Below, piece by piece: positions 18,647-25,634 of a stretch of DNA of 32,000 nt (position 1 is the stretch's first letter; the number at the start of each line of letters is the position of its first letter). Source of the DNA: Candidatus Scatovivens sp. (lineage in GTDB: Bacteria; Bacillota; Clostridia; TANB77; CAG-508); contig JAZRKN010000014.1 of NCBI GenBank assembly GCA_045646345.1, positions 1-32,000 of the forward strand. The letters are read 5' to 3'. Below the pieces are notes generated by a model, which made no database searches, was not told where the DNA came from, and saw only the letters and a list, made by a program, of their open reading frames with translations. The translations under genes were made by a program, and so were the position numbers.

Positions 18647-19205
18647 TTAGTCATCAGCTGGTTCTTGTCCGCCTTTTTTCTTGTCATCCCATTCAGCTTT
18701 ATGTTCTTCCCACCATGCAGGGAAATTAGGATCTTTAGGTGAAAGAGTTGGAGTGATTCCAACGTTTTGAAAACCAGAATTTCCATATATGTTAAACGGA
18801 TATATAGTATCCGAACCTACACCTAAATGGAAAAATTGCATTAATATTCCGTTTATTTTCTGTCCAGATATTTCTTGTGTAATTAGTCATTACATTATCA
18901 ACATTGTCTTTTTCTATACTAATTGTATTACTATGTTCGTGAGTTGTGGCTAATTGGCCATATAAATATCTAATGTGTTTTAAGTTTTCTAATAATTTTT
19001 TCTTATCAAATAAAATTGGATTAGAATCTTCTTGATAACCAAATTTTTTTTGTTGTAAAATGCTTTTTATATATTCTGTAGTTGATTCTGTTGCTAAACA
19101 CCTATTAAATATTGCTTGTACATTTCCTTCTGTTAGTTCTATAGGTTGAAAACTATCATTATTATGCTGTTCGTTATATTTTTTTAATTTATCTTTTAAC
19201 CCCAT
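18647..19205 (-). pseudogene. Hypothetical gene split by a +1 frameshift (or affected by a sequencing error or recoding)
   Basis: The ATG at 19205 has a GGAGA RBS and opens a 137-codon frame ending at 18792. A second frame, 18647-18841, overlaps it by 50 nt, has no RBS of its own and continues to a terminator. The junction contains the homopolymers GAAAATAAAC and CAATTTTTCC. Confidence 0.55.
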
Positions 19206-19257
19206 AATAAAATCTCCTTTATAAAAACTAATTACAGTGTAACACAAATTATGTAAA

Positions 19258-19322
19258 TAATCAAGAAAAATGTTACATAAATGATAATAAAGTGTAATTG
19301 TAATCAAGAAAAACTTAACATA
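19258..19322. repeat. Two 22-bp direct repeats, 43 bp apart, in a divergent promoter region
   Basis: TAATCAAGAAAAATGTTACATA (19258-19279) and TAATCAAGAAAAACTTAACATA (19301-19322). They match at 19 of 22 positions, and the first 13 nt are identical. Confidence 0.7.
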
Positions 19323-19365
19323 CAATGTATATGTAAAAATAGATACAAAGGAAGATGTTTGTATT

Positions 19366-21240
19366 ATGGAACAAGGAAATCCAAATAAAGTAAGTGCTAT
19401 TGTTGATGAAATAGTTAGAAATAATGCTATGTTTAAGTTAAAGTCTCCTATAGAAAGAGATAAAGAAAAATATTCTATGGAGAAAAGCATTAACACAGCG
19501 TTATCAGAACTAAATGAAACAGGAAAAGAACTAGTATTAGAAGAATTAGCTGTGAACCCTGATGAAAAGTTTAAAGGGTTTATTGATAATGCCGGAAACA
19601 TAGATATATCAGGAATATTAAAATTTACTTCAGCCGTTGTAAAAGTAAAAATAGAAGAAGCACAAAGAGAAGGTATAAATTTAAGAAAAGATGGACCAGG
19701 AATTGTAAATGGTACAAATTTTAAACCAGAAGACGTAATTGCAATGGCTGCAATTGGTGAAATGATTTCAAATTATGAAAATTTAACTGATAAGCAAAAA
19801 GCCAGTTTATTTAATGAGAAAATTTATATGGCAATGTCAAATGAAGATAGAAGAAGATTAAACGATAAAGTATATGAAGAAGCTAGTAAAAAAGATTTAT
19901 CGGATAAAGAAAGAAGAAAAGTAGAAAGACTAAGAAGAGAAACATTAATAAATGAAGCATATTTAGATATTATAGAAAAGAATCCAAATCTTTCATTTGA
20001 ACAAATTTCAGCGGAAATTGAAAGAAGACATCCAGAGCTTAGCGAAAAAGAAATAAGAGAGCAATGTAAAAAATATCATAGAGATGATAGAACGTCACAA
20101 GAAAATAGTAATGCTGCGAAGAAATCAACTTATGAAAACACAACGAGCATAACAGCTATTACCGTTAAACATCAATATAATAATTTAGTAAAAAAAGGTT
20201 TGGTCAGAGAAGCGGAAGAGTATATATTAAGTTATAAAGATGAGATACCTGAAATAGATAGATATTATCATAAGATGAAAGAAAGTGGAGCCATTACTAT
20301 TGAGCAAGATACAGGTAATGATTTAGAAACACAAACAGTACAACTTGAAGCAAGAGAAGATAATGTTAGTAATGAAGATAAAAATAATGCATTGGCAGAA
20401 TTTAAAAATGAAGCTCAAACGATTAACAATGCACTGGAAGAGAAAAAAATAGATATACAAAATGAAATTATAGCTCAACTAACAACAATATATGAAAAAG
20501 AAGGGCAGACTATAGAAGATAAAAATATAGCTATATCAATATATGCGGACTTTTTAAAAGAAATTGACGAGGAGGTAATTGCTGATTTTAAAAATAAAAG
20601 TGAAGATGAATTAATTGATTTTATGAAAAAATATTTTGAAGATTTTAAAGATAATATGTCTTCAAATAGCTTTGAAATATTACAAGGATTAGCTCAAAAT
20701 ACTTTCGGAGGAAACTTATATAAATTGTTAACTAACAAACAAATGTTGGAAGAAGTTCTTTTGCCAACATTAAACTCCGAAATGGAAAGATTAGGATCTA
20801 GTCAAGAACTAGAAGTAGTCACAGCACAAGAAAAATCAAAAAATGAAGAAGATGTAACTCCGATAACTGACACAGATGTCGAACAAGGAGTAAGACAAGG
20901 AACACTTAAACAAGAAGATTTAATTGTAGATACAGCAAGTGTTCGTACAGCTCAAAATGAGGAAGAAGGAAGAGTAAATGTTGAAATTCTTAACACAGAA
21001 CAAGCTGAGCAAGGAGTAAATTCAAAACCATTTAAAAATGTAAGTGCTTTTATGGGAATCATAGGAGATGAAAAAGATAATGTGGCAGAAAGTGATTTAG
21101 AAGAAACTCTTGCTGAGTTAGAAACAGCAGCACAAATGATAGAACAAGACCTACAAGTAACTCAAGGAAATATAGGCAATCCACAAACAAATTTAAATCA
21201 AGAACAAACAATTAAAGAAGATGAAGGTATAGAGCAATAA
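19366..21240 (+). CDS. Hypothetical 624-aa highly acidic, Glu/Lys/Asn-rich protein
   Basis: Long uninterrupted ORF with an AAGGAAG RBS-like element upstream and a terminator downstream. No signal peptide or TM segment and no recognisable domain. It contains coiled-coil-like and low-complexity stretches. Confidence 0.7.
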   Translation: MEQGNPNKVSAIVDEIVRNNAMFKLKSPIERDKEKYSMEKSINTALSELNETGKELVLEELAVNPDEKFKGFIDNAGNIDISGILKFTSAVVKVKIEEAQREGINLRKDGPGIVNGTNFKPEDVIAMAAIGEMISNYENLTDKQKASLFNEKIYMAMSNEDRRRLNDKVYEEASKKDLSDKERRKVERLRRETLINEAYLDIIEKNPNLSFEQISAEIERRHPELSEKEIREQCKKYHRDDRTSQENSNAAKKSTYENTTSITAITVKHQYNNLVKKGLVREAEEYILSYKDEIPEIDRYYHKMKESGAITIEQDTGNDLETQTVQLEAREDNVSNEDKNNALAEFKNEAQTINNALEEKKIDIQNEIIAQLTTIYEKEGQTIEDKNIAISIYADFLKEIDEEVIADFKNKSEDELIDFMKKYFEDFKDNMSSNSFEILQGLAQNTFGGNLYKLLTNKQMLEEVLLPTLNSEMERLGSSQELEVVTAQEKSKNEEDVTPITDTDVEQGVRQGTLKQEDLIVDTASVRTAQNEEEGRVNVEILNTEQAEQGVNSKPFKNVSAFMGIIGDEKDNVAESDLEETLAELETAAQMIEQDLQVTQGNIGNPQTNLNQEQTIKEDEGIEQ

Positions 21241-21247
21241 TAAAAAC

Positions 21248-21278
21248 AAAAAATCCAACTTTTATGTTGGATTTTTTT
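21248..21278. terminator. Bidirectional terminator between convergent genes
   Basis: ATCCAAC-TTTTAT-GTTGGAT stem flanked by an A-run and a T-run. The stop codon of the minus-strand gene lies in the loop. Confidence 0.75.
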
Positions 21279-21774
21279 CTTTATTAAATATTTTAAATAT
21301 AAAGTTCTTAATTGATGTAAACATCTTCTTATACCAAGGCAAATTATTATAATCTACTGGTAAAGCAGATGGATCTGATTTAACTTCTACAGTTGTATTT
21401 AAATTTATTTCTGTAGTAGTTGCTGTTTTATTATTAAAGATATTCTCTGGATTGTATTTTTCACGTAATTCTTTTTGTTTTTGTTTTTCGTTTTCTGCTA
21501 AAATAGCTTTTATTTGAGATTTCTCTTCTTCTGTTTCACACCAATAGTTTAATGAAAGTAGAGCTATAAGTGCAGCAGTTTTTTTAGAAACATTTTGGTC
21601 TTCTAAAGGAAGATTACTATCTAAATGTTTTTCATAAGTATCAAGAGCATAAGTATTAAAGATAGTCATAAGTTTTTTTGGAATTTTACTTACTAAGCTA
21701 TCATCTGTAAATGACAGAATTTCTAATAATTCTGCATAAGCATATGCTTGATCGGGCTTAATTTGAATTGCCAT
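21262..21774 (-). CDS. Hypothetical 170-aa protein
   Basis: This is the second gene of a two-gene minus-strand operon. The N-terminal helical domain reads ELLEILSFTDDSLVSKIPKKLMTIF...ALIALLSLNYWCETEEEK. It resembles uncharacterised clostridial proteins I recall only vaguely, so I give no family name. Confidence 0.7.
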   Translation of the reverse strand: MAIQIKPDQAYAYAELLEILSFTDDSLVSKIPKKLMTIFNTYALDTYEKHLDSNLPLEDQNVSKKTAALIALLSLNYWCETEEEKSQIKAILAENEKQKQKELREKYNPENIFNNKTATTTEINLNTTVEVKSDPSALPVDYNNLPWYKKMFTSIKNFIFKIFNKEKNPT

Positions 21775-21813: not shown

Positions 21814-22539
21814 TTACATTGTTCTATCTTCTGGTTCTGTTTTGGTATCTGTTGTTCTTGGAGTTGTCTTTTTTGGTTGTGGTATATAAATTTTTTGTTG
21901 AGTATTTTCAACAGTTAAATTTTCTGTCTTCAAAGGTGATTGGGCTGCTTCTTGAGTTCCTTTTTTTGGTAAATCGAATGAATCATCTAATTCGATTTCT
22001 GCTGAATCAGGAACATCCAAAATTTCTTCGCTATTTGTAAGTTCTTGAGGTTTTCTTGAATTATCGATAAGTGTTCTTGGTTGCGATTGTTGATCATTTT
22101 TTAATCTTTCTACAGCAATTTGTGCTGGAGTTTTATGATGTATGATAGCTTGTAATTGCTCTGGAGTAACAGTTTGATCAAGTTGTTGTTTTGTAGATTG
22201 ACTAATTGTTTGAACTTTAAGTCTATTTGGTGATGATTTAGCATTAATTTTGTCTGCTCTTTTCTTTTGATGATTTTCAAAAGCTGTTACAAGTCTTGCT
22301 CTTAAAGATTTTTTATCTGTAGCTTCCAGCGGATCTTTTGACGTAGTTTGATATCCTTTTGTATTTGTTGTATTATCTCCAAGTAATAATTGTCCTGGTT
22401 TGATTAATTTCATTTTTTGTAGTAATTCAGAGACTTTTTTCATTGCATTAGAAAAAGGGTTAGATGTATCTATGTCATGTATATAGCCAGTTTTGTCTTG
22501 ATTTAATTCTTTGTTTGGATCATTTTCTAGATTATCCAT
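21814..22539 (-). CDS. Hypothetical 241-aa Gln/Thr/Pro/Lys-rich, probably disordered protein
   Basis: The ATG at 22539 follows AAAGGGGG. The ORF-track start at 22605 would overlap the predicted promoter. Composition is low-complexity with no TM segment and no recognisable domain. Confidence 0.6.
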   Translation of the reverse strand: MDNLENDPNKELNQDKTGYIHDIDTSNPFSNAMKKVSELLQKMKLIKPGQLLLGDNTTNTKGYQTTSKDPLEATDKKSLRARLVTAFENHQKKRADKINAKSSPNRLKVQTISQSTKQQLDQTVTPEQLQAIIHHKTPAQIAVERLKNDQQSQPRTLIDNSRKPQELTNSEEILDVPDSAEIELDDSFDLPKKGTQEAAQSPLKTENLTVENTQQKIYIPQPKKTTPRTTDTKTEPEDRTM

Positions 22540-22576: not shown

Positions 22577-22605
22577 ATTTTATACATAACCGATCTAAAG
22601 TGCAA
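22577..22605 (-). promoter_or_regulatory. Sigma-A promoter of the 241-aa/170-aa operon
   Basis: The minus strand reads TTGCAC, 17 nt, TAAAAT. Confidence 0.5.
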
Positions 22606-22692
22606 TAAAATTACAAAAATTTAACCAAAATGACATATTTGGAGGTAATAATTAAAAAATAAAAAAGAAGATAAAAAAATAAAGTCATGGAT

Positions 22693-22722
22693 TTGACTTT
22701 AGAGTAAATAACATATTATAAT
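22693..22722 (+). promoter_or_regulatory. Sigma-A promoter of candidate small RNA A
   Basis: TTGACT (22693-22698), 18 nt, TATAAT (22717-22722). Confidence 0.6.
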
Positions 22723-22727
22723 AAAGA

Positions 22728-22840
22728 ATAAGGACACCAAAATTCAATTAGAATTTTGATGTGTTCCTTTGGAAAAATGAAAAGTCTTCCATTTAATCTG
22801 AGGGGTTGAGTCAGATTAGTAAAAGTGGAAGACTTTTTTT
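22728..22840 (+). ncRNA. Candidate convergent small RNA A (about 110 nt)
   Basis: Its own consensus promoter is followed by a 5' box GAATAAGGAC. A hairpin at 22730-22769 pairs AAGGACACCAAAATTC with GAATTTTGATGTGTTCCTT. A terminator follows at 22784-22840. It carries no credible ORF and ends 10 nt from the stop codon of the opposing ORF. Confidence 0.55.
22784..22840. terminator. Bidirectional terminator shared by small RNA A and the cassette-1 ORF
   Basis: The outer stem is GTCTTCCA / TGGAAGAC and the inner stem TAATCTGA / TCAGATTA. T7 follows on the plus strand and TTTTCATTTTT on the minus strand. Confidence 0.75.
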
Positions 22841-22849
22841 ATGTAAAAA

Positions 22850-23152
22850 CTAGTCGTTAGTTATTTTTTCAAGCGTAACATAAGAGTCTAAAATTTTGTG
22901 ATCATATCGATTGAATTTAGCTAAATAATTAAAAAGTTCTTGATTGATTTTTCTCATAATGTTTTTTAATTCATGTCTTTCAATTGCAGAAATTGACTTA
23001 TTATATTGTTCGACAATGCATTTGATAATTTCTTGAATGACAGTATAGCTAATATCTTTGTCTTGCTTTTCTTTTTTGCTTTCACTTATTGTTTCAATGT
23101 GTTTTTTTATAATAATATGAATTAAATATACATCAGTATCATTTTTCTTCAT
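22850..23152 (-). CDS. Hypothetical 100-aa helical protein, cassette 1
   Basis: The ATG at 23152 lies 7 nt after an AAAGGAGGAA RBS. The ORF-track start at 23191 falls inside the leader hairpin. The protein is hydrophilic with no TM segment. It is paralogous to the 99-aa ORF at 23492-23791, sharing IHxIIxxH[IL]xT[IL]xE, DKxxxY, KCxV and FxYL. Confidence 0.7.
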   Translation of the reverse strand: MKKNDTDVYLIHIIIKKHIETISESKKEKQDKDISYTVIQEIIKCIVEQYNKSISAIERHELKNIMRKINQELFNYLAKFNRYDHKILDSYVTLEKITND

Positions 23153-23161
23153 AAGTATTCC

Positions 23162-23185
23162 TCCTTTAAAACCTAATTTAAAGGA
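23162..23185 (-). promoter_or_regulatory. SD-sequestering hairpin in the cassette-1 leader
   Basis: The mRNA sense reads TCCTTTAAA-TTAGGT-TTTAAAGGA, a perfect 9-bp stem. The 3' arm is the 5' half of the Shine-Dalgarno sequence AAAGGAGGAA. Confidence 0.55.
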
Positions 23186-23260
23186 ACACATTTTGAAACT
23201 CTAATCTGAATCAATATCCTTATTCAATTTTCAAATGTTTGACAAATATCAAACACCAAC

Positions 23261-23289
23261 ATTATAGCACAACGGTTGACATAAGTCAA
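23261..23289 (-). promoter_or_regulatory. Sigma-A promoter of the cassette-1 mRNA
   Basis: The minus strand reads TTGACT, 17 nt, TATAAT. The -35 box lies inside the palindrome GTTGACATAAGTCAA. Confidence 0.7.
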
Positions 23290-23314
23290 AAGGTAAAAAA
23301 ATAAAGCCAATAAA

Positions 23315-23343
23315 TTGACTTTTTAATAGGGCAAAATTATAAT
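23315..23343 (+). promoter_or_regulatory. Sigma-A promoter of candidate small RNA B
   Basis: TTGACT (23315-23320), 17 nt, TATAAT (23338-23343). Confidence 0.65.
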
Positions 23344-23349
23344 ATGAAT

Positions 23350-23458
23350 AAGGACATCAAAATTCATTACGAATTTTGATGTATATCCTAAATATGGAAA
23401 ATCTTCCAAGTATCATCGGAAACATGGGTGGTCTCAGATGTTTGGAAGATTTTTTTTA
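23350..23458 (+). ncRNA. Candidate convergent small RNA B (about 110 nt)
   Basis: The 5' box TGAATAAGGACAT is followed by a hairpin pairing ACATCAAAATTC with GAATTTTGATGT. The terminator pairs ATCTTCCAA with TTGGAAGAT and ends in T8. It has the same layout as RNA A, with base changes that preserve the hairpin. Confidence 0.55.
23401..23458. terminator. Terminator of small RNA B, possibly also used by the cassette-2 ORF
   Basis: 9-bp outer stem plus an inner CATC/GATG pairing, then T8 on the plus strand. The minus-strand U-tract (TTTCCATATTT) is weak. Confidence 0.65.
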
Positions 23459-23491
23459 TTTATTGCAATATCAATGATTGATAGTTATTTT

Positions 23492-23791
23492 CTAGATTGA
23501 AGTAAGTAATTCGTATAATTCGGTTACATTTGAATCCCAAGGATTATCAATTAAGTAAACAAAAAAAGATTCTTTAACTCGATATATAGTAAAGTGAATT
23601 TCTAAGTTGATTGGTGTTAAAATAAATTTGTTTTTATTATCCGAATAGTGTCTCATTAATTTGTAGACAGCACATTTTAGCATGTCATACTCCAATAGTT
23701 TGTCATCATCTGATAGCTCAACTTCCTTAAGTGTTCTTAAATGTGTATTTATAATTTTGTGTATATTTTTAATTTCTTTAGTTTTTTCCAT
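23492..23791 (-). CDS. Hypothetical 99-aa helical protein, cassette 2 (paralogue of 22850-23152)
   Basis: The ATG at 23791 lies 4 nt after a TAGGAGGAA RBS. It has its own promoter and leader, is hydrophilic and belongs to no recognisable family. Confidence 0.7.
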   Translation of the reverse strand: MEKTKEIKNIHKIINTHLRTLKEVELSDDDKLLEYDMLKCAVYKLMRHYSDNKNKFILTPINLEIHFTIYRVKESFFVYLIDNPWDSNVTELYELLTSI

Positions 23792-23906
23792 AAAATTCCT
23801 CCTAAAATAAAATTAAAAAACATACTTATGAGTACACACCAAAAACTCTTATCTGAACCCATGTCCTTATTCAATTTTTAAATGTTTGGAAACCAAACAT
23901 GCAATT

Positions 23907-23935
23907 AGTATAGCACAAAAGTTGACATAAGTCAA
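23907..23935 (-). promoter_or_regulatory. Sigma-A promoter of the cassette-2 mRNA
   Basis: The minus strand reads TTGACT, 17 nt, TATACT. The -35 box sits in the same palindrome as in cassette 1. Confidence 0.65.
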
Positions 23936-23982
23936 AAAACAAGGCGATTAAATCTACAAAAATAAAATTTTACATAAAACAT

Positions 23983-24011
23983 TTGAAATATATAGAAAAA
24001 TACTGTATAAT
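23983..24011 (+). promoter_or_regulatory. Sigma-A promoter of the ABC-F gene
   Basis: TTGAAA (23983-23988), 17 nt, TATAAT (24006-24011), with TG directly upstream of the -10 (extended -10). Confidence 0.6.
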
Positions 24012-24044: not shown

Positions 24045-25634
24045 ATGCTTTTATCAAATGGAGTAACTTTAAGATTTGGAAAAAGAGTACTTTTCGAAGA
24101 TGTTACTATAAAATTTACAAAAGGAAATTGTTATGGTTTGATTGGTGCTAATGGTGCCGGAAAATCTACTTTTTTAAAAATCTTATCAGGAGAAATAGAA
24201 CCTAATAAAGGTGAAGTTATTTTAGACAAAGGTGAAAGACTATCTGTATTAAAACAAGATCACTATGCTTTTGAAGGATATACAGTAATAGATACTGTTA
24301 TGATGGGAAATAGTGAACTTTATAAAATAATGAAAGAAAAAGATGCAATTTACTCAAAACCAGATTTCTCAGAAGAAGATGGAATGAAAGCTGCAAAACT
24401 TGAAGAAAGATTTGCTGAATTGGATGGATGGAACGCTGAATCAGATGCAGCTAAAATGTTAAATGATTTAGGTATTGATGTAGATTTACATTACAAATAT
24501 ATGAGCGAAATTGAAGCTAAAGATAAAGTTAAAGTTCTTTTAGCACAAGCGTTATTTGGAAATCCAGATGTTTTATTATTAGACGAGCCTACAAACGACT
24601 TAGATATTAAAACAATAAATTGGTTACAAGATTTCTTAATGGATTTCGAAAATACTGTAATTGTCGTATCTCACGATAGATATTTCTTAAATAAAGTATG
24701 TACTCATATTGCTGATGTTGACTTTGGAAAAATTAAAGTATATCCAGGAAACTATGACTTCTGGTATGAATCAAGCCAACTTGCATTAAAACAAATGAGA
24801 GATGCAAATAAAAAGAAAGAAGAAAGAATTAAAGAGTTACAAGAATTCATTGCTAGATTTAGTGCTAACGCTTCAAAATCAAAACAAGCTACATCTAGAA
24901 AGAAATCTTTAGAGAAAATTGAACTTGAAGAGATTAAACCTTCAAACAGAAAATATCCTTATATAGATTTTAAACCAGATAGAGAACAAGGAAAAGAAAT
25001 TTTAGAAGTTAAAAATATTTCTAAAACAATAAATGGAGAAAAAATATTAGATAATGTTAGTTTCACTGTAAAAAGAGAAGATAAAATAGCTCTTTTATCA
25101 GATAATGAAATTGCAAAAACTGTTTTATTCCAAATCATTGCTGGAGAAATGGAACCAGATGAAGGTGAATTAGTTTGGGGAACAACAATTACTAAAGATT
25201 ATTTCCCAAAAGATAATAACTATATGTTTGAACAAGATTTAAGTATAACAGATTGGCTACGTCAATATTCAAAAGATCCAGATGAAACATATGTTAGAAG
25301 TTTCTTAGGAAGAATGCTTTTCTCTGGAGAAGAAGCTTTGAAAAAGGTTGCAGTTTTATCAGGAGGAGAGAAAGTAAGATGTGTTCTTTCAAAATTAATG
25401 CTTTCAGGAGCAAACTTCTTAATTTTTGATGAACCAACAAACCACTTAGATATGGAATCAATTACAGCGTTAAATGATGGTATGACAAAATATAAAGGAA
25501 TAATGATGTTTACATCTCATGACCACCAATTAACACAAACTGTAGCAAACAAAATTATAGATATAACAGATAATAATGTAGTTGTAAGAGAATGTACTTA
25601 TGACGAATACTTAGAAGAACAAGAAAATAAATAG
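24045..25634 (+). CDS. ABC-F family ATPase (YbiT/YkpA-like, ribosome-associated type)
   Basis: It has two ABC domains and no TM segment. NBD1 shows GANGAGKST, the Q-loop and LLLDEPTNDLD. A Lys/Glu-rich linker follows. NBD2 shows LSGGEKVR and LIFDEPTNHLD. The ATG at 24045 lies 9 nt after AGGAGG, whereas the ORF-track ATG at 24015 would precede the predicted transcription start. Confidence 0.9.
   Translation: MLLSNGVTLRFGKRVLFEDVTIKFTKGNCYGLIGANGAGKSTFLKILSGEIEPNKGEVILDKGERLSVLKQDHYAFEGYTVIDTVMMGNSELYKIMKEKDAIYSKPDFSEEDGMKAAKLEERFAELDGWNAESDAAKMLNDLGIDVDLHYKYMSEIEAKDKVKVLLAQALFGNPDVLLLDEPTNDLDIKTINWLQDFLMDFENTVIVVSHDRYFLNKVCTHIADVDFGKIKVYPGNYDFWYESSQLALKQMRDANKKKEERIKELQEFIARFSANASKSKQATSRKKSLEKIELEEIKPSNRKYPYIDFKPDREQGKEILEVKNISKTINGEKILDNVSFTVKREDKIALLSDNEIAKTVLFQIIAGEMEPDEGELVWGTTITKDYFPKDNNYMFEQDLSITDWLRQYSKDPDETYVRSFLGRMLFSGEEALKKVAVLSGGEKVRCVLSKLMLSGANFLIFDEPTNHLDMESITALNDGMTKYKGIMMFTSHDHQLTQTVANKIIDITDNNVVVRECTYDEYLEEQENK

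Follow-up and report, generated by a model that had tools for sequence, protein, structure and literature searches.

Cassette-specific complementarity between mRNA leader and terminator loop in toxin-antitoxin-like modules predicted in gut Clostridia

The window analyzed here is a 32,000-nucleotide (nt) stretch of Candidatus Scatovivens sp. (contig JAZRKN010000014.1, positions 1 to 32,000), in which positions 22690-23940 are occupied by two tandem modules of some 620-650 bp each, with conserved non-coding blocks and divergent open reading frames (ORFs). Each of these cassettes has, on the minus strand, a predicted mRNA for a protein of about 100 residues and, on the plus strand, a convergent predicted small RNA (sRNA). 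The mRNA leader contains, between a conserved GAAUAAGGA motif and a hairpin sequestering the Shine-Dalgarno (SD) sequence, a variable segment, X, which is complementary to a segment of the terminator of the same mRNA, anti-X. X changes from one cassette to the next, and anti-X changes with it. The selected feature is probably a contact between the leader and the terminator loop within one mRNA, and our comparison suggests that the cassettes are a toxin-antitoxin-like RNA switch not described before, arranged around the protein of about 100 residues.

Covariation of the leader with its own terminator

An initial annotation, made from the window alone, had claimed that leader and terminator match in each cassette although the matching sequence differs between the two, so that the 3' untranslated region (UTR) of the mRNA is complementary to its own leader. 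The strings it quoted are all present where it placed them. In cassette 1, the reverse complement of 23201-23214, TTGATTCAGATTAG, and plus-strand positions 22806-22819, TTGAGTCAGATTAG, are identical at 13 of 14 positions; in cassette 2, the reverse complement of 23851-23864 reads ACATGGGTTCAGAT and plus-strand positions 23422-23439 read ACATGGGT-GGTC-TCAGAT. As RNA, X1 (UUGAUUCAGAUUAG, 23201-23214, minus strand) is the apical part of leader hairpin P2 and faces anti-X 1 (22806-22819, minus strand), which reads CUAAUCUGACUCAA and makes up the 5' inner arm and loop of the mRNA terminator; 13 of the 14 bases pair, at -15.0 kcal/mol. X2 (ACAUGGGUUCAGAU, 23851-23864, minus strand) faces anti-X 2 (AUCUGA-GACC-ACCCAUGU, 23422-23439, minus strand), in the apical loop of the second mRNA terminator, with 8+6 bp at -17.6 kcal/mol. 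Both cognate pairs rank first. Within the window, the cassette 1 match was reached by 21 of 20,000 terminator shuffles, and the best ungapped block of cassette 2 by 3,048 of 20,000, which is not significant alone. Window statistics being thus uneven between the cassettes, the case rests on homologues.

DNA pattern scans yielded the loci L001-L008, and protein homologues the loci L009-L037. A scan of representative genomes with the pattern of sRNA hairpin H1 found five single cassettes in uncultured Clostridia, including Candidatus Scatovivens, and a metagenome scan with promoter plus leader gave three further loci, one of them with the same tandem pair as the window. The protein profile search returned 40 clusters (90% identity), or 36 representatives with a cut-off of 50%; each is about 100 residues long and unannotated, and twelve contig look-ups contributed divergent cassettes. 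About 27 non-identical cassettes were extracted in this way, and 13 non-redundant representative subtypes were chosen for the tests reported below. The cassettes were found in uncultured gut Clostridia, single or as tandem pairs.

X takes the form of at least 13 unrelated sequences, and in each cassette 8-14 nt of it can pair with the 5' half of the terminator of that cassette's mRNA, that is, to the loop and 5' inner arm in mRNA sense. Subtype A has the X of window cassette 1; within this subtype, L015 (UUUGGUUCAGAUUAG) and L019 (UUGGUUCAGAUUAG) carry an A-to-G change that the terminator has undergone as well. X reads ACAUGGG..UCAGAU in subtype B, CUAGUUCAGAUU in subtype C, AGCCGAAUCAU in subtype D and CAAAACUCAGAGU in subtype E, where 13 nt are found exactly in the cassette's own terminator. 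L030 pairs UUACUGGCAA with a terminator reading UUGCCAGUAA, and own-terminator matches are likewise present for L033 (AAAUUCGAAUUG), the first (AUCGAUUUCGGUG) and second (UUAGGAAUUC) cassettes of L034, and L037 (GGAAUUCAGA). Flanking sequence has diverged freely around this match, which is retained.

We quantified the match with RNAduplex, pairing leader positions 9-30 with the mRNA terminator hairpin only, the A/U-rich flanks being left out. Cognate pairs had a mean of -16.1 kcal/mol, against -8.2±3.0 kcal/mol for non-cognate pairs, and the cognate terminator was the best partner in 12 of the 13 subtypes and the second best in the other. None of 200,000 permutations of partners reached the observed energy total; for an ungapped match score, none of 100,000 did. 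Judged from these alignments and duplexes, the X:anti-X complementarity is cassette-specific. The claim of the initial annotation is thus upheld and extends to homologues: further cassettes do keep cassette-specific matches, about 27 having been extracted and 13 subtypes tested. Architecture, complementarity, the strand on which the partner of X lies, SD sequestration and the 5' hairpin of the leader are what sequence analysis establishes about these modules.

Partner strand, energetics and alternative readings

When X is paired with the terminator hairpin in sRNA sense, cognate pairs reach -9.5 kcal/mol and non-cognate pairs -8.4 kcal/mol, with cognate ranks scattered from 1 to 12. Pairing of the sRNA specifically with X was therefore rejected: leader and sRNA are not complementary in a cassette-specific way. 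What the sRNA has is a same-sense copy of X, on the plus strand of anti-X 1 and anti-X 2, because sRNA and mRNA overlap at the terminator; in subtype B, L030, L034 and L037, this copy lies in the loop and the sRNA has no complement to X. Of the differences between X and its copy, two, in L033 (U/C) and L010 (G/A), amount to G·U pairs in the duplex of leader and 3' UTR. Moreover, in the apical region of the terminator anti-X invariably occupies the 5' side, and the X:anti-X match is retained in subtypes E and F despite a weak or absent sRNA promoter. A cassette-specific partner on the mRNA strand, the G·U changes, the position of anti-X and the retention in subtypes E and F together argue that selection probably acts on the contact between leader and terminator loop within the same mRNA. 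Among the three possibilities listed in the initial annotation, pairing of the 5' and 3' ends of the mRNA is therefore the best supported, its specific partner being the mRNA-sense terminator and not the sRNA.

Nested folds of the full-length mRNAs (457-507 nt) pair X with the terminator region in the minimum free energy structure of 8 of the 13 subtypes, and the probability of this pairing is at least 0.5 in 9 of 13. Keeping anti-X unpaired leaves 10 of 13 subtypes with a basal terminator stem, 6-13 bp long.

Several observations weigh against a leader-terminator contact working as a switch. The contact is absent from the nested full-length fold in subtype A, window cassette 1 included, because the inner stem of the terminator competes with it. 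Net of the cost of opening local structure, pairing is only marginally favorable, at -1.8 kcal/mol on average and with negative values for 10 of the 13 subtypes, and several internal mismatches, in window cassette 1, L020, L027 and L034, are U·C or C·C, not wobbles. Blocking X in silico leaves the SD hairpin closed: the probability that the SD is unpaired is unchanged in 12 of 13 subtypes, and in window cassette 2 it falls from 0.69 to 0.12, making the SD less accessible. The encoded protein, soluble and of about 100 residues, is unlike classical type I toxins, and the two RNAs, like their ends and the terminator, are predicted. As for the energies, a marginal value combined with a surviving basal stem would suit a contact that is reversible, not statically locked. 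The idea that sequestering X opens the SD is unsupported in silico.

Four other scenarios were considered: long-range antitermination, mimicry of a protein-binding site, antisense action of the sRNA at the leader, and absence of function.

By pairing with the nascent terminator in its 5' half and keeping the hairpin from forming, X could cause antitermination over a long distance, so that read-through transcription runs antisense across the sRNA gene and its promoter; the output would be transcriptional interference or a bistable switch. The invariable position of anti-X on the 5' side of the terminator is in line with this, as are the predicted duplexes of subtypes C, D and L030, which reach into the basal stem, and the nested folds, which exchange the terminator for pairing with X in the 8 subtypes mentioned above. 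However, X precedes anti-X by about 400 nt, with a translated ORF in between, an arrangement atypical of attenuators; the basal stem persists in most subtypes when anti-X is held unpaired, and the pairing is only marginally stable. We consider this scenario unlikely.

Alternatively, X may be the binding site of a cassette-specific factor, for instance the encoded protein regulating its own mRNA, and the copy in the sRNA a decoy that titrates this factor, as the initial annotation had proposed. The sRNA and the leader do have three blocks in common, namely GAAUAAGGA, X, and UUUUGAUGUGYUCC with a tail specific to the cassette; X also differs from one protein subtype to the next, and this scenario, too, predicts the identity of X and its copy. 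The identity is broken, however, by the two differences in L033 and L010, transitions that keep G·U pairing with the 3' UTR. In addition, insertions of 1-4 nt set X apart from its copy in window cassette 2, L001, L005 and L015, which a duplex would accommodate as bulges but which would alter the spacing of a protein site, and the copy is in a stem arm in subtypes A, D and E versus a loop in subtypes B, F, H, I and J. Nor does X follow the protein within subtype A, where it varies between proteins that are 64-97% identical, and Foldseek searches of PDB and BFVD revealed no recognizable RNA-binding fold. We therefore regard a decoy as a quite improbable role for the copy.

A third possibility is that the sRNA acts in trans on the leader, the 5' inner arm of its terminator pairing with X and repressing the 5' end of the mRNA, comparable to DRa/DRb of par. 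The initial annotation had noted such an arm in cassette 1, TAATCTGA, and it is indeed found at 22794-22801; subtypes with an inner stem (A, C' and E) have sRNAs with 8-10 nt complementary to X, and in some subtypes the tail downstream of H1 could form a duplex with the SD region at -12 to -19 kcal/mol. Yet this complement exists only where the terminator has an inner stem and is not conserved; the sRNAs with X in the loop lack a complement, and pairing with X in sRNA sense is not specific, as described above. Pairing of tail and SD is absent in subtypes D and F and marginally specific (p≈0.03). As a cassette-specific anti-SD element, the sRNA tail is weak overall and inconsistent between subtypes. 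We rate antisense action at the leader as very improbable.

Finally, that the matches have no function and are remnants of duplication or gene conversion between leader and terminator DNA, or chance, is hardly credible: the 5' domain of the sRNA and the leader are paralogous and bracketed by inverted repeats, parts of the cassette having arisen by duplication, and the match of cassette 2 is not significant in the window alone, but thirteen unrelated versions of X each match their own terminator, at a total that none of the 200,000 permutations reached, X stands at a different position relative to the common blocks in the two RNAs, and the match persists amid diverged flanks, with paired changes in L015 and L019.

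The two RNAs, the protein and their surroundings

Two promoters per strand, four in all, agree with the sigma-70 consensus in 10 or 11 of 12 positions. On the plus strand, the promoter of sRNA 1 (22693-22722) is TTGACT-18-TATAAT (11 of 12), and that of sRNA 2 (23315-23343) also matches at 11 of 12. On the minus strand, the promoter of mRNA 1 (23261-23289) is TTGACT-17-TATAAT with a TG extension (11 of 12), in a block conserved in cassette 2, where the promoter of mRNA 2 (23907-23935) is TTGACT-17-TATACT (10 of 12). In nearly all homologues, conservation of the mRNA promoter extends well past the -35 hexamer, as TTGACTTATGT(N)AAC (minus strand, 23275-23289 and 23921-23935); this block is partly palindromic (TTGAC....GTCAA) and could be the operator of a transcription factor. 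Directly upstream of the -35 boxes of the sRNA promoters, a motif AAAAAAATAAAG(C/T)C (22676-22686 and 23296-23309) is conserved at many loci. It could be an UP element or, on the minus strand, a weak hairpin with a U-run that insulates the tandem cassettes.

The predicted sRNAs, each behind a strong predicted promoter, both begin at GAATAAGGACA (22726 and 23346, plus strand) and have a strong hairpin, H1, in their 5' part. sRNA 1, of about 115 nt (22726-22840), consists of H1 (22730-22769) and a terminator hairpin, H2 (22780-22837), with a T-run at 22834-22840, and folds at -39.1 kcal/mol; sRNA 2, of about 112 nt (23346-23457), has an H1, a terminator hairpin at 23397-23449 and a T-run at 23450-23457, and folds at -34.9 kcal/mol. 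The terminator hairpin at 22773-22840, with U-runs on both strands, is predicted to be a bidirectional intrinsic terminator for sRNA 1 and mRNA 1, and the predicted overlap of sRNA and mRNA at the common terminator is about 65 nt. Ahead of GAATAAGG, TTGACT-17/18-TATAAT is conserved in 19 of 22 cassettes, and H1 and H2 both recur in a consensus fold of 18 sRNAs, including sRNA 2, in which 11 pairs show compensatory changes. Both RNAs are presumably produced as drawn here. The 5' domain of the sRNA is a paralogue of the leader, with the GAAUAAGGA and UUUUGAUGUGYUCC blocks in common and a cassette-specific tail resembling an anti-SD. Rfam gave no match at gathering score in the window, and for 22600-24000 at E ≤ 10 only chance-level matches (E > 4); blastn against phage and plasmid collections, together with pattern scans of viral contigs, found nothing, and a literature search for the conserved motif returned only unrelated primers.

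The order of elements in the mRNA is a 5'-terminal hairpin P1, a conserved UUGAAAAUUGAAUAAGGA, X, a block resembling UUUUGAUGUGYUCC, the SD-sequestering hairpin P3, an ORF of 99-100 codons and the terminator with its U-run. On the minus strand, P1 of mRNA 1 (GUUUGAUAUUUGUCAAAC) is at 23237-23254 and P1 of mRNA 2 at 23882-23900. The conserved motif of leader 1, GAAUAAGGAUA (23215-23225, minus strand), is repeated in inverted orientation at the sRNA 5' end (22726-22736), and that of leader 2, GAAUAAGGACA (23862-23872, minus strand), at plus-strand 23346-23356. Each cassette is thereby flanked by the inverted repeat GAATAAGGAYA, which has five matches in the window where 1.0 is expected, four of them bracketing both cassettes. 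That the cassettes are invertible, phase-variable DNA elements was rejected, a single orientation being present in all of the approximately 27 cassettes, which come from independent metagenomes.

In P3 of mRNA 1 (23156-23189, minus strand), the anti-SD arm GUUCCUUUAAA pairs with UUUAAAGGAGGAA and sequesters the SD AGGAGG (reverse complement of 23160-23165). Folded one by one, all cassettes are predicted to have P1, of varying sequence, and nearly all leaders P3, whose sequence differs between subtypes. RNAalifold on a MAFFT alignment of 21 leaders gave no consensus structure, the hairpins being misaligned, and leader structures are accordingly per-sequence folds.

Two side observations concern translation. 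An AUG within the conserved UUUUGAUGUGYUCC (ATG at minus-strand 23191, the stretch extending to 23153; the motif recurs in the sRNA at plus-strand 22759) starts a short frame, MCS..., crossing the anti-SD arm. In window cassette 1, this frame coincides with that of the ORF; in other cassettes it stops after 3-8 codons. No SD precedes its AUG. The short frame is probably incidental to the structure; a ribosome translating it would unfold the SD hairpin. The subtype E loci L006 and L012 have an ORF that enters the 5' arm of the terminator, with its stop codon inside the stem, so that a terminating ribosome would sit on the terminator and the anti-X region.

ORF 1 (22850-23152, minus strand, subtype A) encodes 100 residues and ORF 2 (23492-23791, minus strand, subtype B) 99. 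BLASTP of one against the other found no similarity; both align in one family profile, ORF 2 being a distant member of the family of ORF 1. An AlphaFold2 model has four amphipathic helices, with a predicted local distance difference test score of 92.6. The grand average of hydropathy is -0.64 for ORF 1 and -0.34 for ORF 2, and neither has a window resembling a transmembrane segment; on this composition the protein is soluble. No match was found in Pfam, NCBIfam, PADLOC, PHROG or PDB sequences, nor with Foldseek in PDB or BFVD, and the names of the protein clusters are "hypothetical protein" only. The protein may have a toxin-like role, the toxin-antitoxin framing being drawn by analogy.

Among neighboring genes, one for an ABC-F ATPase, a ribosome-associated kind of protein, lies divergently in the window (24045-25634, plus strand) and in L001-L004, L015, L027, L030 and L034; a cation ATPase gene or an HD-domain gene adjoins other cassettes. 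On the other side, the window ORFs 21262-21774 (minus strand, 170 residues) and 21814-22539 (minus strand, 241 residues) have no Pfam match. In L027-L029, tandem cassettes are followed by ORFs of 247 and 181 residues, similar in size to these. The 170- and 241-residue ORFs may or may not be part of the module. At lower positions still, the large ORFs listed at 18792-19601 (minus strand) and 19366-21240 (plus strand) overlap; neither has a Pfam match and one of the two calls is probably spurious.

Possible mode of action and likeness to known systems

The reading that we favor, and consider likely, is that of cassettes as self-contained modules, each under the control of an antisense RNA and each with a long-range X:anti-X contact in its mRNA. 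In such a module, the contact between the 5' and 3' parts would keep the mRNA closed, resistant to nucleases and translationally silent, while the SD would stay locked in P3. The convergent sRNA, which would end at the same terminator, would be fully complementary to the 3' end of the mRNA; the copy of X in it follows from its being antisense to the terminator and should make it a competitor of the leader for the same site. It would bind the terminator hairpin, probably starting by loop-loop kissing, and displace the leader from anti-X. The suggestion in the initial annotation of kissing at the terminator loop, as in par, is compatible with this geometry. Once opened, the mRNA would either be degraded, RNase III attacking the duplex and RNase Y/J the liberated leader, or refold further. 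That sRNA and leader compete, and that this affects stability or translation, is thus what we infer. By analogy with the hbs mRNA discussed below, an output through nuclease access is at least as likely as a translational one.

This reading may also account for the diversity of X. Loop sequences would change fast because they set the specificity between sRNA and mRNA, and X would have to follow; orthogonal specificities would result, and these would make tandem cassettes possible. More tentatively, and somewhat less probably than not, the cassettes may be a previously undescribed selfish or defensive family of gut Clostridia under the guard of an antisense RNA, combining a four-helix protein with a three-way RNA switch in which the leader and the terminator loop of the sRNA, mimicking one another, compete for the terminator loop of the mRNA; a loop code of 8-14 nt would have diversified into many orthogonal specificities, so that cassettes could be stacked in tandem.

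If the switch is confirmed, a new protein class (about 100 residues, soluble, four-helix bundle) would join the short list of type I-like systems whose product is not a small peptide, and the cassettes would be a clear natural case of an intrinsic terminator loop used as docking site by the leader of the same mRNA. The 13 or more natural X/anti-X pairs are a ready-made series of compensatory mutations and could serve as orthogonal tags for RNA-RNA interaction. They also point to an annotation gap, conserved sRNA-mRNA modules in metagenome-assembled genomes of gut Clostridia being missed by Rfam and Pfam.

As in type I toxin-antitoxin systems generally, a cis-encoded antisense RNA is predicted to overlap the mRNA, here over 65 nt or so. 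The cassettes are not members of the par, bsrG, hok or aapA1 families: they have no small hydrophobic toxin, no DRa/DRb-type complementarity at the start codon and no Rfam or Pfam relationship. A match between leader and terminator loop with many co-varying specificities is not described in bsrG/SR4, par, hok or aapA1.

In hok/Sok (fbi-tac pairing), the full-length toxin mRNA is locked in an inert state by a long-distance interaction between its 5' and 3' ends, and binding of the antisense RNA leads from kissing loops to a duplex cut by RNase III. The full-length toxin mRNA of aapA1/IsoA1 of Helicobacter pylori is likewise inert through such an interaction, and its antisense RNA forms kissing loops that extend into a duplex cut by RNase III (PMC5416894). 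Both systems differ from the present cassettes in three respects. Their antisense RNAs target the 5' region of an mRNA that needs 3' exonucleolytic trimming for activation, whereas here the antisense RNA would cover the 3' partner directly; and their long-distance interaction sequesters the translation signals, whereas the SD is here predicted to be locked locally.

The Bacillus subtilis hbs mRNA has a pairing of about 14 bp between leader and 3' UTR that modulates cleavage by RNase Y in the leader (PMC5737220), and a modulation of this type is a plausible output of the X:anti-X contact. In contrast to the cassettes, hbs is a single housekeeping gene without antisense RNA and without cassette-specific diversification.

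Closer in layout is par of plasmid pAD1, of the Fst-Ldr family, in which convergent promoters face a common bidirectional intrinsic terminator, as predicted here in an arrangement conserved among the homologues, an intramolecular stem-loop sequesters the SD, as P3 does in silico, the toxin mRNA has its 5' end shielded by an intramolecular helix, another point of likeness, and complex formation begins at the complementary terminator loops (PMC7472228). Unlike Fst/Ldr, however, the cassettes encode no hydrophobic peptide of about 30 residues, their ORFs having 99-100 codons, and they lack complementarity of the DRa/DRb type between sRNA and mRNA over the translation start. The 5' blocks of leader and sRNA are same-sense, not complementary. 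The only direct repeat in common is ACAYCAAAA; its length is 7-10 nt in the majority of subtypes but shrinks to about 6 bp in window cassette 1, and it lies upstream of the anti-SD, locked inside H1 of the sRNA. A match of leader and terminator loop is not a described feature of par.

In its working, the module is most like bsrG/SR4, as far as the analogy goes. In the bsrG mRNA, a helix between its 5' and 3' parts (nt 1-35 with nt 232-262) is opened when the antisense RNA SR4 binds the 3' end, and the SD helix is remodeled (PMC3834814). The differences are several: the 3' partner is here the apical part of a terminator hairpin, the contact is one of 8-14 nt versus a helix of about 30 bp, release of X is not predicted to alter the SD, the product is a soluble four-helix protein of about 100 residues versus the 38-residue membrane toxin BsrG, and there is no relationship by sequence or in Rfam. 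The likeness is in the arrangement: in both cases the antisense RNA overlaps the 3' end of the mRNA only and the SD is base-paired in the free mRNA (PMC3834814), and in both the 3' strand of the long-range pairing, here anti-X, lies in the very region that the antisense RNA binds or is predicted to bind.

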